Source of the DNA: Elusimicrobiota bacterium
GTDB taxonomy: Bacteria; Elusimicrobiota; Elusimicrobia; Elusimicrobiales; UBA9959
Direction: 5' to 3'
Length of the DNA stretch: 64,000 nucleotides
Assembly (NCBI GenBank): GCA_027340875.1
Contig: DAIENX010000007.1
Span: forward strand, 1 to 64,000
Made by a program: the position numbers and the translations under genes. Below are positions 22,374 through 42,089 of the stretch, piece by piece. The notes under the pieces were generated by a model, which was given only the letters and a program-made list of their open reading frames with translations, had not been told where the DNA came from and did not search any database. Numbering within the stretch: position 1 is the stretch's first letter; every line of letters begins with the position of its first letter.

Positions 22374-22377
22374 GTTC

Positions 22378-25935: not shown

Positions 25936-27143
25936 ATGAGGCTCCACAGGCGCCGCAGGGCGATCTTGGCCAGCAGCAGCACGTTGCCGCCGGACAGCGC
26001 CGCGGTGACGGCCAGGCCGGCGACTATCCAGAAGGCGAAGGGGCGCACGTGGAAGACCGGCACCCCCACGTCGTCCTTCGAATCGGCGGCTTTGCTCCTG
26101 ACGTATTCCTTGAGGCCCTCCAGCTGTTCGGCGGTCAGGCCGTCGCGGTACCGGTCGAAGCCGTACTTCTCCGCCAGCTCCGGCTCGGCCTCGCGCAGCT
26201 GCTGCAGGTATTCCTCGGAGATTATCATGCCCGGCGTTAGGCTGTCGAGACAGACGCGGCGCGTGCCGGACAGCGCCAGGTGCCGGTCGGCGACGGCGTA
26301 CAAAACGCCCCTGAACAGCATGAACTCCATGCTCATCACGAATCCGTACAGCACCAGCCTGGCGAGGCTGAGCGTCTCGGGATTAAGCCTGGACGCGACG
26401 GCCAGGAGCAGCAGGCCGGCGAGCAGCGCGCGCGGACCGGCCTTACCGGCCAGCCAGCCGACGCGCCCGCCCAGCGCGAACATCAGGATGAAGAGGATGT
26501 TGCTGTTCACCTGGAAGCCGCCGGTATGCGCCGAGTTCCAGGCCGAGACGAAGCTGAACAGCAGAGCGCTGAAGGAGAAGGTCACCAGCCGGCCCGGCTC
26601 CCTCGCCAGTCCGGCGGCGGCGGCGCGGGCGGCCGCCCAGCTCTTCCCGAAGGCTTTGATGGTCCCGTCCGAGAAGAGCAGGCCGAGCTGCTCCCTGGAC
26701 ATCTGCGCGAAATATACCGCCGCGGGCGGGACGAAGATGTTGACCAGCAGCGACAGCACCAGCGCCACCGGCGCCCAGCTGGCGTACGAGATGACCATCG
26801 GTAGCGCCGCGCAGAGCAGGGCGAAGAGCTTGGCGTCGCCCGCCGGCCACACCGCGGTCTTCCAAAGTATTATCCCAGCCAGCAGGCCGAGGGCCGCGTT
26901 CTCCAGCAGCACCAGGTAGTACCTGTAAACGAAGAACGGCTCCCAGAATGGGCCGTGCAGCCCGTACCTGGTCCCGGCCACGCTGACGGACAGCATGACC
27001 GCGGCGGCGGCCAGGACGGCAGCCCCGCCGCGGGCCAGGCTCCTGTTGCGTATCTTGCCGCAAAGGTCGTCCTCCCTGACCACCCTGAGCAGCAGGACGG
27101 TCAGGTACAGCGTCAGCAGCAGGCTTACTATCGGCAGGTACAT
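25932..27143 (-). CDS. A24-family (prepilin/preflagellin) GxGD-type membrane aspartic peptidase
   Basis: Multi-TM; EDD..GKIRN first-Asp region, PAGDAKL second-Asp motif, C-terminal PFAFWI as in FlaK-like peptidases. Confidence 0.75.
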   Translation of the reverse strand: MYLPIVSLLLTLYLTVLLLRVVREDDLCGKIRNRSLARGGAAVLAAAAVMLSVSVAGTRYGLHGPFWEPFFVYRYYLVLLENAALGLLAGIILWKTAVWPAGDAKLFALLCAALPMVISYASWAPVALVLSLLVNIFVPPAAVYFAQMSREQLGLLFSDGTIKAFGKSWAAARAAAAGLAREPGRLVTFSFSALLFSFVSAWNSAHTGGFQVNSNILFILMFALGGRVGWLAGKAGPRALLAGLLLLAVASRLNPETLSLARLVLYGFVMSMEFMLFRGVLYAVADRHLALSGTRRVCLDSLTPGMIISEEYLQQLREAEPELAEKYGFDRYRDGLTAEQLEGLKEYVRSKAADSKDDVGVPVFHVRPFAFWIVAGLAVTAALSGGNVLLLAKIALRRLWSLI

Positions 27144-27147
27144 AGTT

Positions 27148-28077
27148 CTAGCGTCCGAGTATCCTGGCCGCTATAGCGGCCGGGTCCGAGAACATCGGGC
27201 ACAGCTCCTCCGACTTGTAGTACACGTCCTTCTTATAGAGCCCGGCGCAGATCCTCTTCAGCGTGCAGGCGGCGCAGCGCCCGCCCTTGCCGTAGCTCCA
27301 GTCCTCCTGCACTATGAGCTCCTTCTCGTCCAGGAAATACGTGAGCCGGTTCTCGCCCTTCACTATCTTCCTGGTCTCCGTGGAGCAGTGCGCGAACTCG
27401 GCCATGAAGCAGAGCGGCACGCGCTCCACGCGGAAAGTCCGCCCGCCGGCCTCGAGGAAACGCATCGCGGCGGCCAGCGAGGCCTCGAAGCCGGACAGCG
27501 TGGGTATGGTGTCCGGGAACTCCACCACGCGCTCCATGCCCGGGTCCATATTGTTGAAGACGAAATGCGAGATGAACGGGTACTTCGCGCAGAGGAAGCG
27601 CGCGGCCAGGTGCAGATGGCCGGAGTTGTAGCGGTTGATGACGGTGTTCACGTTCACCGAAACGCCCAGCTTGGCGGCGTTGTCCAGGGTACTGAAGAGG
27701 TTCGTCAGCGAGCCCTTGGTCCTGGAAAGGTGCTCCTGCAGCGCCGGCACGTGAGAATGTATCGAGACGTGCAGATGTCTCAGCCCGGCGCGGCAGAGCC
27801 TGGAGAAATACTTCAAGTCCGCCGTGCGCTGGCCGTTGGTTACTATCCGCGGCTCCATGCCGAGCGTCCGCGCGTAGGCTATGAAGTCCGGCAGCTTGGG
27901 ATGCAGCGTCGGCTCGCCGCCGGTGAAGATTATGCCGGAGGCCTTCCGCTTCGCGTAGTCGCGCATCATAGCGCCGGCCTTTTCCGCGCTTATCACGCTG
28001 CCGTTGGAGGGATTGGAGCAGAACCGGCAGTTCTGGTTGCATTCCCTGGTAAGCTGCAGATAATAAAGCTTCGCCAT
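27148..28077 (-). CDS. Radical SAM protein, HxsC-like
   Basis: CNQNCRFC, TGGEPTL, VPLC, CAACTLKRICAG. Confidence 0.9.
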   Translation of the reverse strand: MAKLYYLQLTRECNQNCRFCSNPSNGSVISAEKAGAMMRDYAKRKASGIIFTGGEPTLHPKLPDFIAYARTLGMEPRIVTNGQRTADLKYFSRLCRAGLRHLHVSIHSHVPALQEHLSRTKGSLTNLFSTLDNAAKLGVSVNVNTVINRYNSGHLHLAARFLCAKYPFISHFVFNNMDPGMERVVEFPDTIPTLSGFEASLAAAMRFLEAGGRTFRVERVPLCFMAEFAHCSTETRKIVKGENRLTYFLDEKELIVQEDWSYGKGGRCAACTLKRICAGLYKKDVYYKSEELCPMFSDPAAIAARILGR

Positions 28078-28079
28078 AG

Positions 28080-28994
28080 TTATAACGTCCCGAGCCCGCT
28101 GACGCCGTGGATCTCGAGGTACTCCGGCCAGACCCCGCCGCAGTAATCCCTGACCCGGCAGCCGGAGCAGAGCGGCGGGAACACCTTGCCCGCGTCCGAC
28201 CGGCGGCTGGTCCTGCCGAGGGCCGCCTCCACGCACCTCTCCGTGCGCTCGTGCCAGCCGCCCACGCAGAGCGGCAGGCCGCAGACTGGATTATTGACCA
28301 CCAGCCCCTTTTTTTCCGCCAGCGAGAGCGCCGCCTCCACGTAAGGGGACAGCGCCGCGTAATCGGGCACCAGGCGCGGATCGGCCTTGGCGCGCCCCCG
28401 CGGCTGCACCACGGACAGCGAGACCGTCCTGACGGCCGGGAAGCGCCTGGAAACGAAATCGATGTACCTGGCGGCGCCGCGGTAGTTGCGCGAGCACAGC
28501 ACCGGGTTCAGTATCACCTCGAGCCCGCAGGCCAGCAAATTGTCTATCCCTTTCAGGCAGAGGGCATGGGAGCCGGGGACTCCGGTTATACCGTCGTGCA
28601 CGCGCGCCGAATGGCTGTGCAGCGAGACGAAGGCGCTCGTCGCCCCGGCCCTGGCCGCGGCGGCCGCCAGCGCCCGGTCCGCGAAGCAGACGGCGTTGGT
28701 CTGCACGTCCACCTTCGCGGCCTTCTTCGCCCGGTAAAGCTTTATCAGGGCGGGCAGGCCCTTGTAGAGCCCGGGCTCCCCGCCGCTTATGGAGATGCGC
28801 GCTCCCGGCCTGACGCCGGCCAGCAGGGCCGACCTCATCGCGTTACGCAGCGCGCGGTCGTCGCGCCGCCGCTCCTCCGGCCGGCGGTCCACGTTGCAGA
28901 ACACGCAGTTCTCGTTGCAGGCGTAGCCGAGCCTCACCAGTTCGTACGGGATGTCCTCCCTGGGGTCGTAGCCTTTCTTAGCCTTAGAGCGCAT
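28080..28994 (-). CDS. Radical SAM protein, HxsC-like
   Basis: CNENCVFC, SGGEP, LPLC, CSGCRVRDYCGG. Confidence 0.88.
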   Translation of the reverse strand: MRSKAKKGYDPREDIPYELVRLGYACNENCVFCNVDRRPEERRRDDRALRNAMRSALLAGVRPGARISISGGEPGLYKGLPALIKLYRAKKAAKVDVQTNAVCFADRALAAAAARAGATSAFVSLHSHSARVHDGITGVPGSHALCLKGIDNLLACGLEVILNPVLCSRNYRGAARYIDFVSRRFPAVRTVSLSVVQPRGRAKADPRLVPDYAALSPYVEAALSLAEKKGLVVNNPVCGLPLCVGGWHERTERCVEAALGRTSRRSDAGKVFPPLCSGCRVRDYCGGVWPEYLEIHGVSGLGTL

Positions 28995-29871
28995 GGAATT
29001 CCGAGTCCCCGTAGGTTTCAAGATATTTGGCGTACACCCCGCCGCAGACCGCCAGCTTCGAACAGGCCCGGCAGCAGCGCAGGGCCGTCTTTTCCCGGTG
29101 GCCGTCCACGGAGCGGCCGCGGCGGCGCAGCATCTCGGTGCGCCGCATCGCGAACTCGCAGGCGCCCGCCGGCACGCGCGGCAGGGCGGCGCAGAGCGGC
29201 ACGTCCCAGAGGCGCAGGCTTCGCGGCCAGCGGCCGCGCGCGGGCGCCAGCTCCTCCACCAGCCTGGAATACCTGACCGAGAGCTTTTTCCAGTCCTTCA
29301 GCGCCCGGCCGAACGGCAGCAGTCCGTGGAAGACGATGTTCCTGAGGCCGCGCAGCGAGAGGAAGAAGTCCCGCAGCTCCCCGAGGCCGTCTATGTTCAG
29401 CGCGTTGACCGTGGCGTTCACCGAGACCTGCACCGGCGAGCCCTTCGGCCGCAGCGAAAGCAGGTTCGACAGGCCGCGCACGGTCTGCGCCCAGCTTCCC
29501 GCCGCCCCCGTTATGGCGTCATGCACTTCCGGTCTGGCCCCGTGCAGCGAGACTATCACCTCGCTGGCGCCCGAGGCCAGCAGTTTGGAGCAGTAATCCC
29601 TGTAGGCCAGCATCCTGCCGTTGGTTATGACGGAGATGCCGCTGCAGCCCAGCCGCGCGGCCTCCCCTATCAGGGCCGGCAGGTCCGGGTTCAGCGTGGG
29701 CTCTCCGGAGGTGAAGACCAGCCGGCGCCCCCTCGCGGGCGCCCGAAGCCCGTCCACGGCGCCGCCGCCCCGGCGGCGGCCGCGGCCGGAGACGTCGGTG
29801 CAGAAGACGCAGTTATTGTTGCACTCCGAAGAGGAGGCCGCGTAGAGGACTTTCCCTGCCGCCTTAGTCAT
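28984..29871 (-). CDS. Radical SAM protein, HxsC-like
   Basis: CNNNCVFC, SGEPTL, TNGRM, VPLC, CRACSKLAVCGG; ATGA overlap. Confidence 0.88.
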   Translation of the reverse strand: MTKAAGKVLYAASSSECNNNCVFCTDVSGRGRRRGGGAVDGLRAPARGRRLVFTSGEPTLNPDLPALIGEAARLGCSGISVITNGRMLAYRDYCSKLLASGASEVIVSLHGARPEVHDAITGAAGSWAQTVRGLSNLLSLRPKGSPVQVSVNATVNALNIDGLGELRDFFLSLRGLRNIVFHGLLPFGRALKDWKKLSVRYSRLVEELAPARGRWPRSLRLWDVPLCAALPRVPAGACEFAMRRTEMLRRRGRSVDGHREKTALRCCRACSKLAVCGGVYAKYLETYGDSEFHAL

Positions 29872-31157
29872 GCGCTCCTCGCCGCGTTGAACATCCGCTG
29901 CACCAGGTTCACGGCTCCGGAGAAGCCCAGGAAAGGCTCCGGCCGCAGCGCGTGGTACCTGTAGGACGGGAAACCCAGGTCCATGCCGGGCAGCCCCAGC
30001 AGGGCCGAGCGCCGGCCTACGCTGCTGGATACCAGCAGGTCGCAGCGCCCGCCGGAGAAAAGCTCCTCTATGGCCCGCCCGTAGGCGAGCACGGGGAAAT
30101 CCCTCAGCACCGGTCTCCCCGGGAAAGCCGCCTCGGCCGAGGCCCATTTGCCTCCGGAGCAGGTCAGGAACACTCCGGCCACGCCCATGCCCAGCTCGGC
30201 CGCGAAGGCGCAGACCGCCTTTCCCAGGTACGGGTCGCCGGTGAAGCAGAGCCTTTTCCCGGCCAGCGCGCCGCCCACCGCGGTGCGGGCCAGCGAATGG
30301 GCCCCGGAGAGCTCCTCGGCTATGATCGCGTCCGCTTTCACGGCGGAGATTCCGGCGGCGCCGGCGGCGGCTTTCAGCCAGGCCGCCGAGGCGGCCAGCC
30401 CCAGCGGCAGCTCCAGCTCCAGCAGCCTGGCGCCGGTCCTGCGGGCCAGCGTCGCGGCCGCGCCGCGCGCGTAAGGCAGGGAGATGATCAGGCCGGCCTG
30501 CTCCGCTTCCTTCAGGGAGGCGTAATCGCTCCCTCCGGGCCAGGCGCAGACCAGGTCCAGCCCGGCCAGCGCCAGCATGCGGCGCAGCTCCGCGAGGTTG
30601 CCGGTCTGGTCGCCCTCGTTGCGGTCCATGAAATGCCCCACTACGGCGACCTTGCCGCGCCGGCCGGCGCCCTTCTTCAGCGGCATGTCCGCGGCCATCC
30701 TTTCCAGCGCCAGCGCGTAGCCGTCCAGGTAGTCGAAGTCCAGCGCGTTGGCCGAGGCGCTCACCACCCTGGTGCCGCGCCGCCCCGTCAGCGAGGCGGC
30801 CAGCTTCCCGTAATCCCTCCCGGTGAGCGTCATGACCGGCAGCGAGGAGAGCAGCACCACGCCCGCGCGGCCGCACAGCGCGTCGGCGCGGGCCTCGGCG
30901 CCGGAGCTGTCGCCGGCTATTATCTCCCCGGCGTGGGAACCGGTATGCAGCACGCGGCTGTCGCCGCGGCAGTCCAGCAGCGTGGAGAACAGGTCGTGGG
31001 AGCCGTGCACGCACTCGGCCTTGCGCGTCACGCAGTCCGTGCCGTCCACCACCGCGTAGGCGTCCGAGACGGCGTTGACGGCGAGGTACAGACCCGTCAG
31101 GAAGGACGGCGTGCAGCTCTCTCCCCTGTCCGGGGTATCAGTTCTCTTTTCTGCCAT
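29868..31157 (-). CDS. Nitrogenase component 1-like (NifK/NifE-type) oxidoreductase subunit
   Basis: C..S.LTG...VVDGTDC, HTG...EIIAG, EGD..GNLAELRRML, LPLGLAASAAWL, PFLGFSG. Confidence 0.8.
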   Translation of the reverse strand: MAEKRTDTPDRGESCTPSFLTGLYLAVNAVSDAYAVVDGTDCVTRKAECVHGSHDLFSTLLDCRGDSRVLHTGSHAGEIIAGDSSGAEARADALCGRAGVVLLSSLPVMTLTGRDYGKLAASLTGRRGTRVVSASANALDFDYLDGYALALERMAADMPLKKGAGRRGKVAVVGHFMDRNEGDQTGNLAELRRMLALAGLDLVCAWPGGSDYASLKEAEQAGLIISLPYARGAAATLARRTGARLLELELPLGLAASAAWLKAAAGAAGISAVKADAIIAEELSGAHSLARTAVGGALAGKRLCFTGDPYLGKAVCAFAAELGMGVAGVFLTCSGGKWASAEAAFPGRPVLRDFPVLAYGRAIEELFSGGRCDLLVSSSVGRRSALLGLPGMDLGFPSYRYHALRPEPFLGFSGAVNLVQRMFNAARSA

Positions 31158-33354
31158 AGCTAGCGAAATCCGACCCGCAGACGGCCAGGATGGTCTCCAG
31201 CGTCCTGCAGGCCCCGGCGAAGCCGGGCCTGAACATGTCCAGCGAGACCTGCGCCTTGCCGGCGTCGGAGACCCGGTAGTCGCAGGAGAAATCGCTCCAG
31301 ACCGCGGAGATCGCCGGGGAAGCCAGCCTTCGGCGCAGCTCGGCCTCTCCGGAGAACGCCGCCGTTCTCATATTGAAGGCGGACAGCGGGCCGGAGAACC
31401 TCTTCAGGGCCTTCTTCTCCGGGGCGTATACCAGCAGCTCCAGGCCGAAGCCGGCCTCCGCCAGGAAGGCGGCCGGCGGCACCCCGGCGGAGCGGGCCGG
31501 CGTGAATATCCGCTCCAGGTCCGCCTCGCCGGCGACGAAAGCTATCCTCTTGCCGGCCGCGCGCGCCTTCAGCGCCTTCCATTCCCCAGCGCTGGCGGCC
31601 ATCGCCGCCCGAACGGTACCGGCCGCCGCCTTGGAGCGGCCGGCCAGCGCGGCCGCCTCGAGCAGCCAGGCGGCCGTGGCGGAAAATCCGTAGGGCGAGG
31701 GCGGGCGCCTGAGACGCTTCTTCCAGCGCCCGCTGAAAGCGGCCTCCAGCCTGTCGTAGATGAAAGAATCGCTGAGCAGGGCGCTGCCGGCCGACCGCAG
31801 GGCCTCGAGGGACTCCCCGTCGTATTCCGGCAGCAGCCAGAACGCCTTTACGCCGGCGGAAGAGAGTATGCCGTCCAGCTCCTTAAGGCCGGCCCCGCCG
31901 TAGCCGAGCAGAACGGCAGCGTTGGCGGGCAGCCGGAAGCGGCGCCGGCCGTCCCGCCTGGCGTAGGCGCGGAAGAAGCCCAGCAGCTCGCCGGGCACGG
32001 AGCAGCCGTCCAGGCAGGTGGAGCTGACCACCACCGGCACGCCGCTGGCCTTCTCGGCCTCGCCGGCCAGCTTCCGCACGTCCTCGCCCATAGCGTAAGG
32101 TACGCAGCCGTTGGTCATGAAGATATAATCCGGCCTTCCTCCGGCCAGGTCCGCGGCGATATCCCTTATGCGGCCGCCGCTGCCGAGTATCACTTCCCCT
32201 GTGCCCAGCGCGCTGGAGCTCCTGGTGGAGCCGGCTTCCGGGTGCAGCTCGCTGCCGGGCAGCAGGCTGGCGGGACCGCGCAGGAACGGGACCTTCTCGC
32301 TCTCCTCCAGCCGCTCCTGGCTGTAGGCGCATTCCCTGTCCTCGTGGGCCAGGAAAGCCTGCCGCCCGGTGTAGCGTACCAGCCCGGTGCCGGAGAAGAC
32401 GGCGTCCGAGAAGAAGCGGCGCCAGCCGTCGCCGGCGCCCGAGGGCGGCCTGGCGGGCGAGGAGATCTTGAAGGACGCCCCGCAGGCCTCCGGCGCGTGG
32501 CAGGCAGCGGGCACGTCGGGCGGGGCGGCCGGAAGCACGCGCGGCTTCTTCCCGCGGCCGGAGAGCAGCGGCAGCAGTATCCTGCCGTCCACCGGCCGCG
32601 GCAGGGAGCCGGCGGCATCGGAAGCGTCCAGGCCGGCCTTTATCCTCCTGACCGCCGCGGCGAAAGGCGAGCGCGGGGCCAGGCGCACCACCGCGGCCCC
32701 GGCGGCTTCGGCCTCCCTGACCGCCGGGTCCAAAGGACAGCGGGCCAGTATGCCGGCCTTTATCAGCGCGGCGAACTTGTCCACGGCGCCGCCGCGGCCG
32801 CCGTCCGCGCCGTTGGCCACCAGCCCCATCAGGCCGGCGCCGCTGCCGGCGTGCACGGTCATCGCGCGGGCTATGTTGTTGGCGGCGTAGAGTGACATCA
32901 GGTCTTCCGAGACCACTATCAGCACCTTGCGCCCGAAGCCTTTTCTCAGCGGCACGGCGAAGCCGCCGCAGACTATGTCGCCCAGCACGTCGAAGATCAC
33001 CGCGTCGTAGTCGGCGGCCACCTTCTCGCGGGCGGATTCCAGCAGCTCGAAGGTCTTCAGCAGGCCCATGCCGGCGCAACCCTCTCCCGGAGCGGGGCCG
33101 CCGGCCTCCAGGCAGTCCACGCCCCTGCCTGTCCTGTAGATCAGCTTCTCCAGCGTCGGGCGGCCGCCGCGCAGCGCCTCCACCACGGTCGGGATGCCCT
33201 CGCCGCCTGTCAGCAGCAGCGCGGAATCGCTCTTCGGGTCGCAGCCCACGTGCAGGACCCGCTTGCCCTCCATGGCGTACAGCTCGCTGAGGTTGGCTGC
33301 TATGGTGGATTTGCCTATCCCGCCCTTGCCCAGGATGACGATGCGCTCAGACAT
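31138..33354 (-). CDS. NifH/BchL-like Fe-S ATPase fused to a degenerate NifD-like module
   Basis: GKGGIGKST, GCDPKSDS, EAGGPAPGEGCAG, DVLGDIVCGGFA, MSLYAANNI; C-terminal EVILG, NGCVPYAMGED, PYGFSATAAWL, GFAG. Confidence 0.88.
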   Translation of the reverse strand: MSERIVILGKGGIGKSTIAANLSELYAMEGKRVLHVGCDPKSDSALLLTGGEGIPTVVEALRGGRPTLEKLIYRTGRGVDCLEAGGPAPGEGCAGMGLLKTFELLESAREKVAADYDAVIFDVLGDIVCGGFAVPLRKGFGRKVLIVVSEDLMSLYAANNIARAMTVHAGSGAGLMGLVANGADGGRGGAVDKFAALIKAGILARCPLDPAVREAEAAGAAVVRLAPRSPFAAAVRRIKAGLDASDAAGSLPRPVDGRILLPLLSGRGKKPRVLPAAPPDVPAACHAPEACGASFKISSPARPPSGAGDGWRRFFSDAVFSGTGLVRYTGRQAFLAHEDRECAYSQERLEESEKVPFLRGPASLLPGSELHPEAGSTRSSSALGTGEVILGSGGRIRDIAADLAGGRPDYIFMTNGCVPYAMGEDVRKLAGEAEKASGVPVVVSSTCLDGCSVPGELLGFFRAYARRDGRRRFRLPANAAVLLGYGGAGLKELDGILSSAGVKAFWLLPEYDGESLEALRSAGSALLSDSFIYDRLEAAFSGRWKKRLRRPPSPYGFSATAAWLLEAAALAGRSKAAAGTVRAAMAASAGEWKALKARAAGKRIAFVAGEADLERIFTPARSAGVPPAAFLAEAGFGLELLVYAPEKKALKRFSGPLSAFNMRTAAFSGEAELRRRLASPAISAVWSDFSCDYRVSDAGKAQVSLDMFRPGFAGACRTLETILAVCGSDFASYGRKEN

Positions 33355-34366
33355 GTCCCACCGCCTCTCCCGCGGCCGGCCGGGCGCGCAGTATCCGGGC
33401 CGCGGCGGCCGCGGGGATGGGGCGCAGTTCGCCGTCGCCGAACCTGTCGAGGTAGGCCCCGAAGACCCCGGCGCAGCGGTCCGCCAGCGCGCAGCCCGAG
33501 CAGCGCTCCGTCCTCGTCCGCTTCAGCGGCGGGACCACGCTCTTCTTAACCGAGAGCACGTTCTCCTTCAGGTAGGAGCGCCCGCGCTCCAGCACGAGCC
33601 GCGGGGAGAAGAGCAGGTCGTTGGAGAAAGGGGCCAGCGGGCCCAGCGCGCAGAAAGGGGCCCCGGAGACGACCAGGCGGGCGCCGTTGGCGCGTATGGT
33701 CCCGGCGGCTGAACGCACGGCGCGCGCGAAGTCCGGCAGCCTCACGGTCAGGCTCCCGTAGGAGGAGCGCACGTTCCCCCACGGTATCAGCTGCGACATC
33801 ATGTAGACCCCCGGCCGGCCGCGGGAGAAGACGTACTTCGCTATGTCCGCCGTTCTCCCGGAGTTGAGGGAGCAGACCACGGTGTGGCACATGAACAGCT
33901 TGAGCTTCCCGAAGCGTTCCACGTTCGAAAAGACCTTTTCGACCGTGGAGAAGGCGGACGGCATCCGCGTGACGGCGCGCGCCAGTCCCTCTTCGTTCCA
34001 GTGCACAGAGAGGCAGAGTTCGTCGATGTCCGGCAGCAGCCGTGCCGCCGCCGCGGGGTCGGCCAGTCCCGTGCCGTCGGTGGTGACCTGCACCGAGTAG
34101 CCCAGCAGCTTGGCTATGCGCAGTATGCGCCCGAACTGCGGATGCACGGTGGGCTCCCCGCCCAGCAGCGTCAGGTGCCCGGCGCCGCCGCTCCGGAGCT
34201 TCTTCATTATCGAGCAGGCCTCCGCGAGCGGCATGAAGCCGCCGCCGGAGCGCAGGCTGCGCGCCTCGCAGCAGAAGACGCAGCGGCGGCGGCAGACCTT
34301 GGAGATCCGCAGCTCGGCCCGCTCCCCGGCGGCGCCGGGGGCGCTCAGTAGGTCCTCTCCGTGCAT
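33347..34366 (-). CDS. Radical SAM protein, HxsC-like
   Basis: CRRRCVFC, LGGEPT, APFC, CSGCALADRCAG; start approximate. Confidence 0.85.
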   Translation of the reverse strand: MHGEDLLSAPGAAGERAELRISKVCRRRCVFCCEARSLRSGGGFMPLAEACSIMKKLRSGGAGHLTLLGGEPTVHPQFGRILRIAKLLGYSVQVTTDGTGLADPAAAARLLPDIDELCLSVHWNEEGLARAVTRMPSAFSTVEKVFSNVERFGKLKLFMCHTVVCSLNSGRTADIAKYVFSRGRPGVYMMSQLIPWGNVRSSYGSLTVRLPDFARAVRSAAGTIRANGARLVVSGAPFCALGPLAPFSNDLLFSPRLVLERGRSYLKENVLSVKKSVVPPLKRTRTERCSGCALADRCAGVFGAYLDRFGDGELRPIPAAAAARILRARPAAGEAVGHV

Positions 34367-35076
34367 ATGTTGTACTTCACGTAATTGGGCGCGCGGTCCT
34401 CGCGCACCCGGCTGTCCACGGCCCGCTGCTTCCGCGGCCTGGCCCCGTCCGGCCTGAGCGCGGCGTAGTCCACGTGCGTGTCCGTCTCGTTCTCCTTGAG
34501 GTCCCAGACCGCGCATTTCAGCCCGAGCGCCATCATCCCGGAGACGGTCTCCTTTATCCTGCCCTGGTTGGCCTTCAGGCGCAGCGTGTGCATCTCTATC
34601 CTAGTGCCGGGAAAGGACTTTATGTTCTTTATGGCCTTCAGCAGGGCCGCGTAGCTGCCTTTCTTCCTGGTCACGGCGTCGTGCACGGCCGCGTCCGGCC
34701 CGTAGACCGGCAGCAGGAAGGCGTTGACCCCGGCCGCGACCAGCGCGGCCGTCAGCCGGCGGCTGCGCAGCTTGACGCCGTTCGACATCAGCTCTATATA
34801 GGCGAAGCCTTCCTTCACTCCCATCCTGACCACGGACTCCAGCAGCCACGCGGGGGCCATCGTGGGCTCGTCGCCGCCGAGGCAGAGCCGCCTGACTCCG
34901 CGCCGGCGGAGCACCCGCATCAGCGCGAGGAAGCGTATCAGCACCTCGCGCCACCGCTCCTCGGTGAAGGTGAAGGAGGTCTTGTGCGGGTGCCTGTTCC
35001 GCTGGCAGAAGACGCAGTCGATGTCGCAGCCGAACGGGAACGCCAGCAGCAGCTTGTCCTCCTTCCTGGCGTTCAT
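34345..35076 (-). CDS. Short radical SAM protein without the C-terminal Cys motif
   Basis: CDIDCVFC, GGDEPT, MSNG, HDAVT; ATGA overlap. Confidence 0.8.
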   Translation of the reverse strand: MNARKEDKLLLAFPFGCDIDCVFCQRNRHPHKTSFTFTEERWREVLIRFLALMRVLRRRGVRRLCLGGDEPTMAPAWLLESVVRMGVKEGFAYIELMSNGVKLRSRRLTAALVAAGVNAFLLPVYGPDAAVHDAVTRKKGSYAALLKAIKNIKSFPGTRIEMHTLRLKANQGRIKETVSGMMALGLKCAVWDLKENETDTHVDYAALRPDGARPRKQRAVDSRVREDRAPNYVKYNICTERTY

Positions 35077-36059
35077 GCGGCCTTCACCTCCGTTATGGGA
35101 CGGAAGAAAGGGGCCTGCTCCGGGAAGGCCTCGAGATACTTCCGGAAGATGCCTCCGCAGGAGCGCCGCAGCGCGCAGCGGCCGCAGGACTTCAGATAGA
35201 CGCGCCGCCGCGTCGGGCGCAGCGAGACCGTCTCCTTCAGGCCGGCGCGCCCGCCGGGGAGCGCCGCCCTCTCCACGGTCAGCCGCGGCGAGTAGTAGAG
35301 GTCGTTGGAAAGGTCGTAATGACCGTTCAGCGAACAGGCCGGCGCGCCGAAGAAGCGCAGCGTCACGCCGAACAGCGCGGCCTGCTCCCGCAGGTCCCCT
35401 ATGCGCCGGCCTATGGCGGTGAGGTCCGGAGCCAGCGAGGCGTAGTCCTCGCAGGCGCCGCCCTCCGGGGCCGGGTTGGAGATCATGTAATGCCGGACGA
35501 ACCCAGAGCGGGAGACCAGGCGCAGGATGTCCGAGACCAGCTTGAAGTTCTTTTTGACGGCCACGGTGTTGACCATCAGGAACAGCCTGCCGCCGCCGGC
35601 CTTGCCCAGGTTGTCCAGCGCGGCCATGGCGTCGTCGAAGCTGCCCTTCCTGCCGGTCAGCGCGTCGTGTATCTTGGCCGTAGGTCCGTGGCAGGAGAGC
35701 ATGGCCTCGTCCAGCAGCGGCGCGGTACGGCGGACGAAAGCGGGATCGGCGAAGGCGAGGCCGTTGGTGGTGACGCTGGTCCTGAACCCAAGCGCCCTGG
35801 CCGCACCGAGGGCGGCCGGCAGCGCGGCGCACAACGACGGCTCTCCTCCGGTGAAAGTGACGTGGGAGAAGCCGGCCCTGCGTTTCTCGCGCAGGATGCC
35901 TGCTATCTCCGACCCCGTCAGGTCCAGCGAGCCGAACCGGCGCAGCCTGTTCCGCTCGCTGCAGAACAGACAGCTGTTCTCGCAGGTGTAGGAAACGTGT
36001 ATCTCCAGCCGCTCCACCGCGGCTTTCTTCGCTCCAGCGCCGTGTACCGTTCGGCTCAT
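35073..36059 (-). CDS. Radical SAM protein, HxsC-like
   Basis: CENSCLFC, TGGEPS, TTNG, APAC, CGRCALRRSCGG; ATGA overlap. Confidence 0.88.
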   Translation of the reverse strand: MSRTVHGAGAKKAAVERLEIHVSYTCENSCLFCSERNRLRRFGSLDLTGSEIAGILREKRRAGFSHVTFTGGEPSLCAALPAALGAARALGFRTSVTTNGLAFADPAFVRRTAPLLDEAMLSCHGPTAKIHDALTGRKGSFDDAMAALDNLGKAGGGRLFLMVNTVAVKKNFKLVSDILRLVSRSGFVRHYMISNPAPEGGACEDYASLAPDLTAIGRRIGDLREQAALFGVTLRFFGAPACSLNGHYDLSNDLYYSPRLTVERAALPGGRAGLKETVSLRPTRRRVYLKSCGRCALRRSCGGIFRKYLEAFPEQAPFFRPITEVKAA

Positions 36060-37183
36060 GCGACGCACCTCCCGGAACGGACCGGCTTCAACGCCGAGAA
36101 ACCCCTGGCCATCACGGTCCATATCCTGGCTCCGCGGCAGGCCGGGCCCAGCCGGCAGCGTCGGCAGGCGGAACCCTTCACGGTCAGCCTCTCCGCTATG
36201 AAGAACTCGGCCACCTTCATCAGGCCGGCCCTTGGCGTTATCTTTTTCACGGCCCTCCGCTTCTCCGGCAGGCAGGCCGGCGCCGGGACCGTCTTAAGGG
36301 AACCTTCCGCCCGCAGCAGCTCGAGGTCCGAGCAGAACTGTGCCATCACGCAGGACGCGCACCGCGCCCCCTTGCAGTGCATCTCCTCTCCGGCGTACAG
36401 GAAGGCCTCCAGCGGCCGGCGCATCCCCCGCACCTCGTCCATCAGCTTGCCGGGGTGCTGTATATACCGCTCGTTGCCCTCCAGCACTGCGGCGGGGAAG
36501 CGGTTCGTCCAGACGTGGGCGTTGACGGATTCGGAGAAGCGGAACACCTTTTCCAGCACCTTCCTCTTGGAAGCCGGGTCATAGGAAAGTTTCTTCCAGT
36601 TCTCCCACGCCCTGCCGAAAGGTATCAGGTTCAGCAGGTCGTACTCGTCCACGCCGAGGCGGTGCAGCAGGCCGACTATCTCGCGGACGGAGTCGGCGTT
36701 AAGCCTGTTCACCACGATGTCGCTGCTGACTATCAGGCCCGGCACCTTCTTGGCGTTGGCGATGGCCAGCAGGGTCTGCGCGAAAGCGCCGGGGACCCCG
36801 ACCAGCGCGTCGTGCTGCCCGGAGGTGGCCCCGTGCACGGAGAACGTTATCTCGGTGAGCCCGGCGGCCACAGCGCGCTTCAGAAAGCCATCGTAGCAGA
36901 ACATCCGCCCGTTGCTGATGGCCTGCACGTGGGTATAGCCGAGCTTCCTCGCCTTCGCCACTATGGCCGTGAATTTGGGGTGTATCGTGGGCTCTCCGCC
37001 GCTCAGCACCACCCGGCGGCAGCCCTCCGCCCGGCCCCGCCTCAGGTCGGCCTCTATCTCTCCGAGCGGCAGATGTTCGCCGCAGATGGAGTCCGCGTCC
37101 AGACAGAAAAGGCAGCGGTTGTTGCAGGCCCTGGTCAGCCTGACCCATTTCCGCTTTTCCGGGGCGGCGGTTCTTTCCGTCAT
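36056..37183 (-). CDS. Radical SAM protein, HxsC-like, two C-terminal Cys motifs
   Basis: CNNRCLFC, SGGEPT, SNGRM, CASCVMAQFC, CRRCRLGPACRG. Confidence 0.9.
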   Translation of the reverse strand: MTERTAAPEKRKWVRLTRACNNRCLFCLDADSICGEHLPLGEIEADLRRGRAEGCRRVVLSGGEPTIHPKFTAIVAKARKLGYTHVQAISNGRMFCYDGFLKRAVAAGLTEITFSVHGATSGQHDALVGVPGAFAQTLLAIANAKKVPGLIVSSDIVVNRLNADSVREIVGLLHRLGVDEYDLLNLIPFGRAWENWKKLSYDPASKRKVLEKVFRFSESVNAHVWTNRFPAAVLEGNERYIQHPGKLMDEVRGMRRPLEAFLYAGEEMHCKGARCASCVMAQFCSDLELLRAEGSLKTVPAPACLPEKRRAVKKITPRAGLMKVAEFFIAERLTVKGSACRRCRLGPACRGARIWTVMARGFSALKPVRSGRCVA

Positions 37184-37187
37184 AGTT

Positions 37188-38135
37188 CTATCCAAGAAGT
37201 ATCCTCTCTGCCAGCCTGTCCGCGGCCATCCCGCCGGCCACGGCCTTGGCCCCGAAAAGCTTCTTCGCCATGCCGGAGTAATCAGGACGGCGTCCGCTCC
37301 CGGCGCCCAGAGCCTCCAGCCCGCCGGCCAGCATCTGCGCGGCCTGGCCCGGGTCCCTCGCGGCAAGGACGAGGTTGGAGTGATAGCACCTGCCGTCAGT
37401 GTCCACCGTGGTCCCGGGATTGAAAAGCGGCACCGGGCCTTCGCGCGAGGCGTTCTCGATGACAACGGCCCCGGAATCGGCCAGTTCCCTGATATGCCTC
37501 AGCGCCCTGGCGAGCTTGGCGAGGGCGGCCGGCGTCCATTCCCGGTAATAGGCCGGCAGGACGTTGACCCTGGGCGGTCGTCCGCGCGAAGCGGCTATCA
37601 CGCGCTTCAGGACCCCGAGCGAAGAAAGCGGGTCGCGCTCGGGCAGCAGCAGGTTCCAGATCAGGTTGGGCAGGGCCGCGAACCTGCGGCTGACGCTCAC
37701 CGAGGAGTTAATGTTCACCTGCACCCACGGCCGGGCCGAGAAATACCGGAGCTTCGCCGCGTCCAGCAGCAGGCCGTTCGTGCCCACCTCCGCGCGGCCG
37801 CGGTAGCCGGCCGCCTCCAGCATGCCTATGCCAGTCCTCACCAGCCCGAAGCGCAGCAGCGGCTCCCCGCCGAAAAACTTGACCGCGCCGCCCCCCAGGG
37901 CGGCGGAACAATACTGCTTTATAGCGCTTTTCAGGACCGCCGCGGGCATGTCCGCCCGCCCGGTCGCGACGGGACATTCGGGGCACGCCGACTGGCAGCG
38001 CCGGGTGAGGATAAGGGTCAGCTGCGGGGCCGGCGCGCCCCCGCGGCAGGCCGGAAGGGCCGAGTTACTGGCCCTTCGCCGGTTCCTTTCCTTTGGTCTG
38101 CTTGCCCTGCGGCTGTACGCCCATCCTCTTGTCAT
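37188..38135 (-). CDS. Radical SAM protein
   Basis: CQSACPEC, FFGGEPLL, GTNGLLL; start codon uncertain. Confidence 0.8.
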   Translation of the reverse strand: MTRGWAYSRRASRPKERNRRRASNSALPACRGGAPAPQLTLILTRRCQSACPECPVATGRADMPAAVLKSAIKQYCSAALGGGAVKFFGGEPLLRFGLVRTGIGMLEAAGYRGRAEVGTNGLLLDAAKLRYFSARPWVQVNINSSVSVSRRFAALPNLIWNLLLPERDPLSSLGVLKRVIAASRGRPPRVNVLPAYYREWTPAALAKLARALRHIRELADSGAVVIENASREGPVPLFNPGTTVDTDGRCYHSNLVLAARDPGQAAQMLAGGLEALGAGSGRRPDYSGMAKKLFGAKAVAGGMAADRLAERILLG

Positions 38136-39114
38136 CTTCAGCCTTCTGCTTTACCATGTCGGCCATTATCTTGTGGCGGAACGAGCTCGTGCAGTAGCCG
38201 GTGGCGAGCTTCTTGGCCAAAGGTGCGCAAACCGACGGGTCCCTGGACTGCAGCACGTGGAGCAGCCATTTCTCGTCCGGGGTGGAATCCCCCCTCACCA
38301 GCGCGGCGCTGAGCTGGCATTCTTTCTTCCGCGGGCCGCTCAGTTTGCCGCAGGCCGCCCGCCCGTTGATGAACAGGAAGTTGGATTCGCAGTTGGGCGG
38401 CAGACCGAGCGAGCGGCACTCCGGGGTCCGCCTCTTCGCGATAGAGTCGGTAATGAACCGACAGAAGTCGGGGCTGGGACGCCCCCCCCTGAACGCGTTG
38501 TTAACGAACTTCTCGCATTTCCCGTCGTTCGTCTTCCTGTTCAGGGCCGAATACATGAAATCGTAGTAATCGGCGGCGAAACAGACCCTCTCCAGGTTCT
38601 GCTGGACGCAGTCGAGACGGCCACCGCTGATAAGCCGGCAGACGCCGTAGTCCAGGAAGAGATCGAGTATAGTCTCATCCTCGGGCATGTTGCTGTTGGT
38701 ATTGAAGAAGAACCGGAAGTTCTTGTCGAAATGCCTGACGATAGCGTCCGGGTTGTCCGAGAAGGCCTTTATACAGTCGCTGTCGGCCGCGTTCACCGGG
38801 ACGTCCTCTGGCTGGGAATAATACCCGCCGGAGGCGCTTTCGTACTGGCCGCTCTGGGGGATATTGCTCTGGGTATCGGTCGACGCCTGGCTGACCAGCG
38901 CGGCGGCGTCCGGAGGAAGCGCCTGGCCGACCTCCTGTTGCTGGGCCGCGGGGTAGGCCGGAGCCGCCGGCTGCTCGATGCCTATCTTCGCGGCGTTCCT
39001 GTCGGTGACCATCTTCAGGGCGAAAAGCACGCCCATCAGCGCCACCAGCAGGCCGATAAGCAGCTTCGGGGACATCGCCCCGGGTCTGTAGCCTTTCCTC
39101 ATCGCGCTCACCAT
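38065..39114 (-). CDS. Membrane-anchored extracytoplasmic Cys-rich protein
   Basis: N-terminal TM, Ala/Pro/Gln linker, Cys-rich domain; start could be 39114, 39102 or 39075. Confidence 0.8.
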   Translation of the reverse strand: MVSAMRKGYRPGAMSPKLLIGLLVALMGVLFALKMVTDRNAAKIGIEQPAAPAYPAAQQQEVGQALPPDAAALVSQASTDTQSNIPQSGQYESASGGYYSQPEDVPVNAADSDCIKAFSDNPDAIVRHFDKNFRFFFNTNSNMPEDETILDLFLDYGVCRLISGGRLDCVQQNLERVCFAADYYDFMYSALNRKTNDGKCEKFVNNAFRGGRPSPDFCRFITDSIAKRRTPECRSLGLPPNCESNFLFINGRAACGKLSGPRKKECQLSAALVRGDSTPDEKWLLHVLQSRDPSVCAPLAKKLATGYCTSSFRHKIMADMVKQKAEDDKRMGVQPQGKQTKGKEPAKGQ

Positions 39115-39404
39115 TGCCCGTGGCTGCCGTGCGAACCGTGCGAACCGTGCGAGCCGTGGCTGCTGTGCGAACCGTGCGAACCGTGCGAGGCGTGACTCAC
39201 GTGGCCCGACGCGTTGCCGCTGCTGTGGAAGTAGTTTGCATGCGCTAGCGCGTCAGCGTGCTCTGTCACCACTCCGACGGCGGTGGCTACCAGTCCGAGG
39301 ACGACCGCGGCCTTGACCACGTCGCTCTTGACTATCTTGCCCTCCTCGCTCGAAAGGAAGCGGGAAAGGTCTACCGACAGTTTCTTTTTCTGTTTTCCGG
39401 CCAT
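39108..39404 (-). CDS. hxsA: His-Xaa-Ser repeat precursor peptide (HxsA-like)
   Basis: 98 aa; nine tandem HxS triplets plus HGQW at the C-terminus; directly downstream of hxsB. Confidence 0.92.
   Translation of the reverse strand: MAGKQKKKLSVDLSRFLSSEEGKIVKSDVVKAAVVLGLVATAVGVVTEHADALAHANYFHSSGNASGHVSHASHGSHGSHSSHGSHGSHGSHGSHGQW
39117..39203. repeat. Coding 9-bp tandem repeat (GTGCGAACC variants) encoding the HxS array
   Basis: Visible 9-nt periodicity with synonymous variation. Confidence 0.85.
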
Positions 39405-39423: not shown

Positions 39424-40893
39424 CTATACGTGTATCCCGGCCGCTCCGGCGCTGCTGCCGGCCCAGGATTCGAACAGCTTCCTAACCTTCGGCTCGCGCA
39501 GCCGCGCGAACAGGTAGTCCATCACTCCGGTGTAGATCTCGCACCGGAAGTTGGGATGATGCATGTACAGGTCGTTGTGCTCCGAATAGTTGAAGACCGG
39601 GCATACGCCGCAGTAGGGCTTGTAGACGCAGGAGGAGCAGAGCGTCTGTATGTCCGTGACCGACGCGGTGACCACGCATTTCACCACTGAGCTCGACGCC
39701 AGGTCCGCGTAGGTCTCCTTCTTCAGGTCGCCCATGCAGAACGAATCGGTCCCCTCCGCCGCCAGCATGCGCCCCTCGTCGCAGGTGAAGACGCGGCCGT
39801 CGTAGTCGTAGGCGATCTGGCCTATCCCCGCCCCGCAGGGGGACCGGAGGTCCATGAAGTTCGGGTCGGTGCCGGTCAGGATCTTCCTCAGGAATATCCT
39901 GGCCGTGTGCTCGACCAGGGAGGCCTTCTTCTTCAGGTTCAGCTCTATGATGTAGTCCAGCGCCTTCGTGTAGAACTCTATGTACTCCCGCGCCGTGTAG
40001 CCTATCCCAGGCCAGGCCTTCTTCGCCGCGCCGAACGGATTGAGGAAGCGCAGGAAGATGGAGCGGGCGCCGATGCGGACGTATTCGTCCACTATGTCCT
40101 TGTGGCGCCCCAGGGACTGCTGCGTCACCGTGAGCAGGGCGTCCGGCCCGTTCTTGGTCCTGGCCGTGCGCTTCTTGATGGTCTTCCACCACTTCACGAC
40201 CTGGGCGTGGCTGCTGCCGCCGGTGGCCACCCGGTTCTTGTCGTGCAGGTCGGCGGGACCGTCCAGCGAGGTGCAGATGGCGACGTTGTGCTTGAGCAGG
40301 AAGTTCAGCCTCTCTCCGGTCATGGCCGACAGGTTGGTGACCAGGCTCAGGCTCACCTTCTTATCGAAGGTCTTCGTGCGGGCGGCGGCCTCGTTGACCA
40401 CGAACTCCAGCACGGGCCAGTTGAGCAGCGGCTCCCCGCCCTGGAACTCTATGGTGATGTTGTCGGCCGGGGAAGCGAAGATGGCGTCCAGCACCCTGGA
40501 GGCCGTCTCCCTGTTCATGTCCAGGCCGCGGCCGCTCCTCTTGGACGAGGCGTGGCAATACACGCAGTCGTGGTTGCAGCGCCGCGTCAGCACGGCTATG
40601 TGCAGCGCCGGGCCGGAGAAGAGGAAATGGTTCTTCTCGAGCCACCTCTCGGCCAGGCCGGAAAAGTCCATGTAGTCGCGGACGAGGCCCTTGCGGGAGA
40701 GGTCCTTGTACTCAGCCGAGTCCTTGTCCAGCTTGCCGGCCGCCAGCCGCGAGAAGACATCGCCGGAGATGAAGGCGTGCTCGCCTATGTCGTTGGTGAC
40801 CAGGTATTCGTCGCCCCACTTCTTGTAGCGCAGAAAACCGGTCTTCTTCGGGTCGAAGTCAATTCTTTCTTTTTGCTTTTCTGGCCTTCGCAT
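39424..40893 (-). CDS. hxsB: His-Xaa-Ser system radical SAM/SPASM maturase HxsB
   Basis: CNHDCVYC, IEFQGGEPLLN, DLRSPCGAGIGQIAYDYDG, TCDEGRM, CSSCVYKPYCGVCPV. Confidence 0.9.
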   Translation of the reverse strand: MRRPEKQKERIDFDPKKTGFLRYKKWGDEYLVTNDIGEHAFISGDVFSRLAAGKLDKDSAEYKDLSRKGLVRDYMDFSGLAERWLEKNHFLFSGPALHIAVLTRRCNHDCVYCHASSKRSGRGLDMNRETASRVLDAIFASPADNITIEFQGGEPLLNWPVLEFVVNEAAARTKTFDKKVSLSLVTNLSAMTGERLNFLLKHNVAICTSLDGPADLHDKNRVATGGSSHAQVVKWWKTIKKRTARTKNGPDALLTVTQQSLGRHKDIVDEYVRIGARSIFLRFLNPFGAAKKAWPGIGYTAREYIEFYTKALDYIIELNLKKKASLVEHTARIFLRKILTGTDPNFMDLRSPCGAGIGQIAYDYDGRVFTCDEGRMLAAEGTDSFCMGDLKKETYADLASSSVVKCVVTASVTDIQTLCSSCVYKPYCGVCPVFNYSEHNDLYMHHPNFRCEIYTGVMDYLFARLREPKVRKLFESWAGSSAGAAGIHV

Positions 40894-41320
40894 TTTTGTT
40901 TTCTTCCCACGGTATGGCTATTCCCAGAGCATCGGTCTTGTAGTCGCCGCTCTCCGCCTCTTTCAGCAGCTTCTCGATCTCCTTCTCCAGCTCCGCGTCC
41001 AGCACCGGGGCGGCGGCCGCCGGTTCCGCGGGTCTGGGCTGCGCGGAAAGAAGGGCCCTGACCACTATCCTCTCGCGCAGGGCCTGGTTCACGGCCGAGA
41101 CCTTGAGGCGGAAAGCGTGGTGCAGCAGTTCGTTGCGGAACTCGCCCTCCAGGTCGCGGCCCGCCGGGAACTTGCCGTTCTTGGACTCCAGCACGGCCGA
41201 GAGAGCGCCGCCCTTGTCCTTGCCCAGCTTCACGTACGCGGCCTTGGAGAACGTGTATGCCGCGGCATAGACGCACTCGATAGGGTAAACGGAAAGATCT
41301 ATCTTCACCTGTATTTTCAT
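40859..41320 (-). CDS. hxsD: His-Xaa-Ser system protein HxsD
   Basis: DLSVY...VYAAAYTF, EFRNELL...R pattern; position before hxsB. Confidence 0.8.
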   Translation of the reverse strand: MKIQVKIDLSVYPIECVYAAAYTFSKAAYVKLGKDKGGALSAVLESKNGKFPAGRDLEGEFRNELLHHAFRLKVSAVNQALRERIVVRALLSAQPRPAEPAAAAPVLDAELEKEIEKLLKEAESGDYKTDALGIAIPWEENKNAKARKAKRKN

Positions 41321-41339: not shown

Positions 41340-41903
41340 TTATCTCAACCTGCAGCAAAGCATTTCGCCAGTAGCCTGTATACCGCCGGGAGGGCCCATC
41401 TGGTACATCTGGTTGCCGACGCGGGCGGCCACTACGGCGGTCTTGGCGCCGAGACACATCGTGACGACGCCGTAAGAATAGCTCTGCCAGGAACAGTCCA
41501 GCGGGACCGTCGGGTCGGACCAGCGGGCCAGGCCGTTGCCGTCCGAGGTAAGCAGCCGGCCGTTGGCCTGCGTGCCGTCCTGCAGCTCGAAGCTGCCGAC
41601 CACGTGGAGTTTTGCGGCCGGGGAAGGGGTGCCTATTCCAACATTGCCGCCGTCCCTGGCCAGCAGGGTCTGGCTGGTGGTAAGTATGCTGACGTAGCCG
41701 CCGTAGGGGGCAGGGTAATAAGTGGTCAGCGTAAGCGTCTCGGAGCCGATGAAGCCCGGATGCCAGCAGATGAACATGAGGGCCATCAGCGCCACCACCG
41801 TCTTCCGGTGCGTCCTGCCGAGCCTGTCCAGCCAGGCAGGCAGGCCGGGCTGGTGAAGCCAGTCCAGCGAGAACCTTATAACGATATCGCGGTTATTTTT
41901 CAT
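41340..41903 (-). CDS. Membrane-anchored protein with fibre-like GNVGIGT motif; first gene of the operon
   Basis: TM segment, ETLTLTTYYPAPYG, GNVGIGTPSPAAKLHV, LTSDGNGLARW. Confidence 0.75.
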   Translation of the reverse strand: MKNNRDIVIRFSLDWLHQPGLPAWLDRLGRTHRKTVVALMALMFICWHPGFIGSETLTLTTYYPAPYGGYVSILTTSQTLLARDGGNVGIGTPSPAAKLHVVGSFELQDGTQANGRLLTSDGNGLARWSDPTVPLDCSWQSYSYGVVTMCLGAKTAVVAARVGNQMYQMGPPGGIQATGEMLCCRLR

Positions 41904-42089
41904 AGTCGCCGCCCCCGATAAGCGCGAAAAGCACATCCTTGCGCAACGGCCCCTACGGTCGGGACGCGTTGCATATCACACGGACCGCCACGGGCTTGCT
42001 CCCATGGCACTCACCGATCCGGATTTCGTTCGCGCGCCTACGCGCATGCTAGCCATCCGCCGGCTTACGCCGGCGATACTTCGACTATA
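41904..42089 (-). ncRNA. Candidate structured 5' leader RNA
   Basis: Four consecutive GC-rich hairpins between the promoter and the first ATG; no family recognised. Confidence 0.4.

Follow-up and report, generated by a model that had tools for sequence, protein, structure and literature searches.

A Flp-like leader on an HxsA4 His-Xaa-Ser precursor and its probable removal by a dedicated A24-type membrane protease

Why should a peptide that ends in tandem His-Xaa-Ser (HxS) repeats begin with a leader resembling those of Flp pilins, and what removes that leader? The question is posed by an open reading frame (ORF) at 39108..39404 on the minus strand of a 64,000-nucleotide stretch of an Elusimicrobiota genome (GenBank assembly GCA_027340875.1, contig DAIENX010000007.1); the whole stretch is referred to here as the window, and the coordinates of window features are given in its numbering. 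The ORF is a real gene whose product is a precursor peptide; the His-Xaa-Ser system to which it belongs is of the HxsA4 type and is a variant of the HXS radical S-adenosylmethionine (SAM) system. We propose, with moderate confidence, that a dedicated A24-type protease encoded in the same operon cuts off the leader, probably after Gly22. The analysis shows that the precursor belongs to the HxsA4 family, that its motif is conserved, that the enzyme is homologous to known proteases, and that the two genes are linked; cleavage of HxsA4 by the protease, the bond that is cut, the order of events, and what becomes of the product are inferred.

Translation of the ORF (stop codon, 39108-39110) yields a 98-residue protein in which all of the elements listed by a sequence-only reading of this DNA, namely, a basic N terminus, FLSSEEG, a hydrophobic helix (VVKAAVVLGLVATAVGVV, residues 29-46), an ADA site (residues 50-52), nine HxS units, and HGQW, were found where that reading had placed them. 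The protein scored 64.4 bits over residues 12-98 against the NCBIfam HxsA4 model NF038313 (cut-off, 55) and 63.5 bits against the same model in a genome-wide search; the precursor family is thus already curated, and a Pfam scan of the window ORFs found no domain in this protein. Membership in HxsA4 entails tandem HxS repeats and a neighboring HxsB maturase gene, and both are present, the HxsB gene being separated from the precursor gene by a spacer of 19 nucleotides. The N terminus is tripartite. The leader (residues 1-22, 39339..39404, minus strand) comprises a Lys-rich start (residues 1-15, MAGKQKKKLSVDLSR) and FLSSEEG (residues 16-22, 39339-39359, minus strand), a conserved motif that aligns with the leaders of Flp prepilins. 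It is followed by a charged linker, KIVKSDVVK (residues 23-31, or +1 to +9 after the Gly; 39312..39338, minus strand), that is conserved in homologue columns, and by a short hydrophobic core, AAVVLGLVATAVGVV (residues 32-46; 39267..39311, minus strand), with conserved small residues at +11, +15, and +18. The third part is a polar, AxA-type c-region, TEHADA (residues 47-52; 39249..39266, minus strand), in which a permissive scan placed a candidate signal peptidase I site after Ala52. The core peptide (residues 53-98; 39111..39248, minus strand) contains H55-x-N-Y-F-H, the nine tandem HxS units (residues 68-94), and HGQW (residues 95-98), with LAHANYFHSSGNASG lying between TEHADA and the repeats. 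H55, the third residue after ADA, is near-invariant, and it and the His and Ser columns of the repeats are at least 90% conserved among HxsA4 homologues.

Conservation of the leader was examined in a collection of 5.8 billion proteins, in which 283 homologues were found at an E value of ≤0.01; the best 120 and the query, 121 sequences in all, were analyzed. A lack of conservation of EEG had been set beforehand as grounds for refutation and is clearly not what was found: 120 of the 121 listed homologues match the pattern [FY][L..]x[S..][ED][ED..][GA], the general form being [FY]L-x-S-E-E-G-K; the sole exception, P0113, reads FLLDNRG and still has Gly at the candidate residue before the cut. With the Gly numbered 0, the 120 matching sequences have F at -6 in 113, L at -5 in 118, S at -3 in 96, E at -2 in 119, and E at -1 in 111. 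The FLxSEEG motif is not a product of chance. A24 peptidases restrict the residue before the cut to Gly or Ala, and the candidate residue fits this rule in all 120 matching homologues (G in 111 and A in 9), a position at which the search pattern itself demanded one or the other. Conservation extends into the linker (K at +1 in 108, I, M, or V at +2 in 120, D or N at +6 in 89, and K at +9 in 97) and the helix (G or A at +11 in 117, L at +14 in 101, and G, S, or A at +18 in 109). The uncharged run after +9 is 12 to 16 residues long in 104/120 homologues, and the hydrophobic stretch ends 21 to 25 residues beyond the Gly. Small residues at -3/-1 of the putative signal peptidase site stand 0 to 3 residues ahead of the first conserved His in 97/120; the AxA scan was permissive enough to give a site in 120/120 by construction and is descriptive only. 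The hydrophobic core is conserved in sequence (G/A at +11 and L at +14), which is unusual for a plain Sec signal peptide and suits recognition inside the membrane. A search of the genome for other ORFs with this leader found none, leaving the precursor as exactly one. Among the matches listed, the C-terminal endings HGSHGQW, ARGGWC, and HGSW or HGSY recur, which suggests that HxsA4 may fall into subtypes with a conserved aromatic or Cys C terminus.

How close the leader comes to that of a pilin was judged from authentic Flp prepilins, taken with the Pfam model from two unrelated genomes. The four leaders compared end in RLINDESG/ATAIEY, RLAGDESG/ASHIEY, RFLVSEDG/PTAVEY, and KLLHEEEG/PTAVEY (the slash marks the leader end), to be set beside RFLSSEEG/K of HxsA4; acidic residues and Gly at the leader end, with F/L-L before them, are thus found in HxsA4 precursors also. 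An hhalign comparison of the HxsA4 profile with one Flp prepilin covered 27 columns at 37% identity with a probability of 52% and a four-residue gap after the Gly, and the claim of a Flp-like leader is upheld by both comparisons. The likeness has its limits, one of which, the absence of the Glu-Tyr pair that follows the Flp leader, had already been pointed out and was confirmed in the homologue columns: HxsA4 sequences carry K, G, S, A, or E at +5 and D or N at +6, where all four Flp sequences read E-Y. The hydrophobic core of HxsA4 begins at +10, whereas the helix of the four fetched Flp prepilins begins at +1, and the charged linker has no Flp counterpart. The Flp_Fap model (PF04964; cut-off, 32.2 bits) matched 0 of 82 HxsA4 family members at an E value of ≤10 and nothing in the whole genome at an E value of ≤1. 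No T2SSE-type assembly ATPase was found in the window or in the flanks (≤10 kb on each side) of 23 HxsA4 loci in a search that did not extend to platform genes; weak T2SSE-type hits near the loci proved to be response-regulator receiver domains, and ten T2SSE-type ATPase matches lie elsewhere in the genome. By its sequence, the HxsA4 peptide has a Flp-type leader yet is not a Flp pilin, and its action as a pilin is not supported.

The candidate enzyme is a 403-residue protein (25932..27143, minus strand) that, from its Asp motifs, predicted fold, and synteny, reads as a divergent FlaK-fold, A24-type aspartic membrane protease with about four extra helices. Between its gene and the preceding radical SAM gene there are 4 nucleotides, and at the 3' end it shares 16 nucleotides with the radical SAM gene that follows. 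The protein has no Pfam or NCBIfam match at an E value of ≤0.01. In A24 enzymes an Asp of the first helix is followed by I-P/R-N, and a second, GxGD-type motif reads G-D-x-K; D25 (codon 27069-27071) lies within DDLCGKIRN and D103 (codon 26835-26837, both on the minus strand) within WPAGDAKLF, which we take to be the two catalytic-Asp motifs. Both residues are invariant in an alignment of 70 relatives. An exhaustive profile search gathered 1,613 family representatives at an E value of ≤0.001, and among the 155 listed and analyzed, D-x4-[KRQ]-[ILV]-x-[ND] was present in 124, GDx[KR] in 146, and both in 118. When 93 of these (the top ranked, after the exclusion of fragments and near-duplicates) were scanned against Pfam, PF01478 was matched at an E value of ≤0.1 in 51 and above its cut-off in 10, and a few showed weak matches to Arc_PepC, the C-terminal domain of archaeal A24 enzymes; the ESM Atlas clusters neighboring the protease carry both PF01478 and Arc_PepC. 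An AlphaFold model built on the 70-sequence alignment reached a predicted local distance difference test (pLDDT) score of 91.2 and superseded one built from 8 sequences (pLDDT, 64.8). By exhaustive structural alignment it matched FlaK (3S0X_B) with a Z value of 11.1 and a root mean square deviation of 3.9 Å over 163 residues spanning model residues 3-394; 3S0X was the only chain with a Z value of ≥8 among 48,161, the runner-up reaching 6.8. Because helical models can reach such values by chance, the Z value was weighed jointly with the Asp motifs. A Foldseek search of the PDB with the model returned nothing at an E value of ≤0.001, and an hhalign comparison of the family profile with the canonical PilD of the same genome aligned 18 columns near P-F-[AG] at a probability of about 1% and was not used as evidence. 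The extra helices occupy model residues 161-291, and the two Asp residues stand at helix ends flanking a K/R-rich loop (residues 29-34), which by the positive-inside rule would place the pair on the cytoplasmic face of the membrane.

That this protease belongs with the leader is argued by genomic linkage. A profile confined to the leader picked out 23 leader-bearing HxsA4 loci in species genomes, of which 20 have the protease gene on the HxsA4 contig and in the same orientation: within a flank of ≤10 kb in 12 loci, 10 to 12 kb away in L027 and L036, 12 to 36 kb downstream in 5 more, and, in L015, linked by coordinates only. In L007 and L012 the contig breaks at the locus and the protease gene is found elsewhere in the genome; L019, a short archaeal contig, was left out of the protease check. 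The linked loci come from Elusimicrobiota, Omnitrophota, Saccharibacteria, Moraniibacteriota, and Parcubacteria. The same search yielded 12 loci with repeats only, and none of these has the protease gene. In a sample of 301 genomes from the phylum, the protease family occurs in 46 and HxsA4 in 47; 43 genomes carry both, 3 the protease alone, and 4 HxsA4 alone (two of them weak), counts that overstate independence, the genomes being kin and from three families only. According to tables read by hand, the two genes share one contig in 29 of the 43 genomes, and in 24 they are on the same strand and no more than 25 kb apart. The pairing of leader and operon peptidase drawn by the sequence-only reading thus recurs across phyla. 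In G132 and G224, which are of one genus, the protease gene stands 13 to 19 kb upstream of the precursor on the same strand, the reverse of the window order, and the cluster has therefore been rearranged. The genome also has a canonical PilD of 263 residues (57.9 bits on PF01478) that adjoins a type IVa pilin gene (leader, MKNMKKGFTLIELMIV), the pair occupying 14-475 and 553-1344 on the plus strand of contig C72 (L001), and the operon protease is on this account an extra, dedicated enzyme. Two Hxs-type loci without this leader, both from Myxococcota, also lack the protease. Since HxsB and HxsD are also found in Hxs systems without leader and protease, among them the canonical one (PMC13128918), it is the protease, rather than the maturases, that the leader follows. 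The Myxococcota HxS precursors (3-749 in L030 and 9981-10628 in L038, both on the minus strand) have an acidic leader (e.g., SDDEWEEALPTFEKD) and no hydrophobic segment; in L030, HxsB and HxsD genes adjoin the precursor, and neither locus has an A24-like gene.

These observations suggest a sequence of events in which the cytoplasmic radical SAM enzymes, HxsB and the HxsC paralogues, would modify the His- and Ser-rich tail of the precursor, after which its hydrophobic segment would engage the membrane and the FlaK-fold protease, acting on the cytoplasmic side, would remove the leader, with Gly22 probably the last residue before the cut. The N terminus left by that cut would consist of KIVKSDVVK, the 15-residue hydrophobic core, and TEHADA, and because this remainder shows the n-h-c layout seen in ordinary Sec signal peptides, the modified tail would be expected to be exported and then either released through signal peptidase I or retained on a membrane anchor. 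The layout, with small residues at -3/-1, was recognized by inspection and the permissive scan; in the uncut precursor the n-region is unusually long, at 31 residues. Modification is placed first because radical SAM enzymes work in the cytoplasm and because this order is the model proposed for the canonical HXS system (PMC13128918).

Several points weigh against removal of the leader by the A24-type protease. Between Gly22 and the hydrophobic core stand nine residues with four charges among them, a spacing absent from the four Flp prepilins compared, and signal peptidase I, if it cuts at AxA, would discard the leader in any case and make an A24-type cut look redundant. Signal peptidase I at ADA may also work alongside the A24-type protease rather than in its stead. 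A docking site for the N-terminal domain of HxsB is an equally conceivable role for the conserved motif. The 403-residue protein scores 12.2 bits (E value, 0.48) on PF01478, below the cut-off of 26.5, and thus fails the Pfam A24 model itself; of the earlier description of this protein as a prepilin peptidase, kinship with A24 enzymes stands, on the strength of the Asp motifs, fold, and relatives, and membership in PF01478 does not. A search of PDB sequences with the sequence profile of the family finds no A24 structure. FlaK substrates have Lys or Arg at -2, where the HxsA4 leader has Glu. A protease-seeded search of metagenomes, which gave 80 loci with sequence up to 10 kb on each side, showed HxsB- or HxsC-like radical SAM genes in 70 of them but a leader-bearing precursor in only 5 (4/24 where the full 10 kb upstream was available). 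On these counts the link of the protease is, strictly, to the Hxs enzyme cluster and, at the level of the genome, to HxsA4, rather than one of adjacency.

The strongest competing explanation, which we regard as possible but on balance doubtful, takes FLxSEEGK to be mainly a recognition tag for the radical SAM maturases, read by a RiPP (ribosomally synthesized and posttranslationally modified peptide) recognition-like domain at the N terminus of HxsB, by HxsD, or by both; export and loss of the leader would go by way of Sec and signal peptidase I at AxA, and the A24-like protein would be employed elsewhere, for example, in clearing the released signal peptide or in maturing some other membrane protein encoded in the cluster. 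In SPASM maturases the N terminus usually holds a domain that binds the leader, and about 100 residues precede CxxxCxxC in HxsB. The signal peptide layout after +9, with its core of 12 to 16 residues and small residues near the His, speaks for this explanation, as does a distance between precursor and protease genes that often exceeds 10 kb; in the canonical system, HxsA is exported by a signal peptide and processed in a manner dependent on HxsB, HxsC, and HxsD (PMC13128918). It does not account for the absence of leader and protease from other Hxs systems that possess HxsB and HxsD, nor for the match in 43 of 46 genomes and the synteny across phyla. The Gly or Ala at the candidate cut in every matching homologue (where the pattern required it), the Gly in the sole miss, and the sequence conservation of the hydrophobic core likewise speak against it.

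A second alternative, which we consider improbable, retains the A24-like protease and moves the cut to the bond after the small residue at +11. In archaeal class III signals the hydrophobic stretch is preceded by a basic residue followed by a small one, in the pattern [KR]-G; HxsA4 has K at +9 and G/A at +11 in most homologues, the fold of the protease is nearest that of archaeal FlaK, and the bond would lie where the hydrophobic core begins, as do the bonds cut by known A24 enzymes. The spacing K-x-[GA] departs from [KR]-G, however, the hydrophobic stretch left would be only some 11 to 14 residues long, and the resemblance of FLxSEEG to Flp leaders would go unexplained. Least probable is the proposal, made in the sequence-only reading and not borne out here, that the processed peptide behaves like a Flp pilin, as a membrane-retained or polymerized His-rich, metal-binding surface fiber: the Flp-like leader, a Gly-to-hydrophobic-end distance similar to that of Flp pilins, a small-xxx-small spacing (+11, +15, and +18) that could serve helix packing, and the ATPase matches elsewhere in the genome speak for it, whereas the missing Glu+5/Tyr+6, the four charges in +1 to +9, the core that starts only at +10 and is mostly 12 to 16 residues long, the lack of Flp_Fap matches, the lack of an assembly ATPase near the loci, and the conserved AxA-type c-region, which argues for release, speak against it. 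Its more speculative elaboration, to which we give equally little credence, makes HxsA4 a pilin-RiPP hybrid whose small-xxx-small helix, after modification and leader removal, would drive a membrane-anchored oligomer or a filament built by one of the type IV machineries of the cell, on which the modified poly-His tails would form a surface layer able to bind metal or DNA.

The system can be set beside those it most resembles. With the Flp prepilins and TadV/CpaA of Tad (type IVc) pili it shares a basic leader that closes with F/L-L-x-[SD]-E-[ED]-G and is followed by a hydrophobic helix, and a dedicated A24-family aspartic peptidase encoded nearby. It differs in the features of the peptide described above, in a C-terminal part that is a radical-SAM-modified HxS repeat, and in the lack of a detected Tad ATPase gene at its loci, where platform genes were not searched for; TadV/CpaA is small, and the operon protease, at about 400 residues, has extra helices and a soluble domain. 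With FlaK/PibD (A24B; 3S0X), the best and only strong fold match, the protease has in common both Asp motifs, a soluble domain with weak Arc_PepC matches in relatives, and archaeal A24 neighbor clusters in ESM Atlas; it differs in falling below the Pfam cut-off, in its extra helices, and in the location of its family in radical SAM clusters and not beside archaellin or pilin genes. By analogy, then, the system would resemble Flp/TadV in the logic of its leader and a FlaK-type enzyme in the fold of its protease.

RiPP leader peptidases include the C39 domain, a cysteine protease that is fused to the transporter in peptidase-containing ABC transporters. The present system resembles these in having a dedicated protease encoded in the cluster, a conserved leader with a Gly-containing motif, and a link to the membrane and export; it differs in that the protease would be a membrane-embedded, GxGD-type aspartic enzyme, and a scan of 45 window ORFs turned up no ABC transporter. 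Processing of pilins, pseudopilins, archaellins, and a small set of binding proteins from archaea is the recognized task of A24 (GxGD) prepilin peptidases. If our proposal is correct, the A24 family has a new task in radical SAM peptide clusters of Elusimicrobiota, Omnitrophota, and ultrasmall bacteria, and RiPP-like systems have a new route of leader removal. A literature search that did not reach subscription journals found no paper linking A24 peptidases to radical SAM peptide clusters and none using the names HxsA4 or HxsC4.

The canonical HXS antiphage system of Pseudomonadota consists of the four genes HxsA/B/C/D with no protease, and was shown in 2026 to block the entry of phage DNA by means of a periplasmic, N-terminally processed HxsA of >200 residues, for whose processing no protease of its own was identified (PMC13128918). 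The two systems share an HxsB above the equivalog cut-off, an HxsD-like gene, HxsC-like radical SAM enzymes, and an HxS-repeat substrate with an N-terminal export signal, which in the canonical system is N-terminally processed. The locus described here differs in its 98-residue precursor with a Flp-like leader, about a dozen HxsC paralogues below the cut-off, nitrogenase-like proteins, and an A24-type protease. It does not belong to the canonical system, its best HxsC-like protein scoring 106.3 bits and its short precursor carrying no Pfam domain. The A24-like protease is nevertheless a concrete candidate for N-terminal processing in His-Xaa-Ser systems, and a pilin-type leader placed ahead of a signal-peptide-like segment suggests a checkpoint at which export would occur only after cytoplasmic modification.

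The remaining genes of the cluster lie on both sides of the precursor, on the same strand. Directly upstream is the gene for HxsB, a radical SAM/SPASM maturase (39424..40893, minus strand; 489.4 bits on TIGR03978, with a cut-off of 370), preceded by one for an HxsD-like small protein (40859..41320, minus strand; 48.2 bits on TIGR03976, just under the cut-off of 50) and by a conserved first gene for a 198-residue protein with one predicted membrane helix (41340..41936, minus strand). The last contains a region TTYYPAPYGGY...GNVGIGT, has no Pfam family match, and has a homologue upstream of HxsD in 11 of the 23 loci from species genomes as well as in each of the nine metagenome loci inspected. 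In nine metagenome loci (L053, L060, L066, L076, L077, L083, L090, L092, and L119), a second HxsD-like ORF of about 95 residues follows HxsB, in the usual place of the precursor, and an A24-like gene lies 1 to 3 kb downstream, yet no HxS-repeat ORF is found within 10 kb. Starting inside the last codons of the window precursor is an ORF (38065-39114, minus strand) for a 349-residue Cys-rich protein with an N-terminal membrane helix, which has no family match and no phmmer homologue in the other loci; some metagenome loci have Cys-rich proteins in the corresponding position, but comparison showed these to be unrelated to it.

Family scans showed that the remainder of the operon (19553..38135, minus strand) is an array of HxsC/HxsC4-like radical SAM paralogues, all under the curated cut-offs, in which the protease gene is embedded. 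A PADLOC search returned generic viperin-like radical SAM similarity only. The same scans found a NifH-NifD/K-like fusion of 738 residues (31138-33354, minus strand) and a NifD/K-like gene (29868-31157, minus strand) in the array, a pair that is also present in loci L013 and L039. Just outside the cluster are genes for a barnase-type ribonuclease with a hydrophobic N terminus (47810-48421, minus strand) and a PIN-PhoH protein (48558-49985, minus strand).

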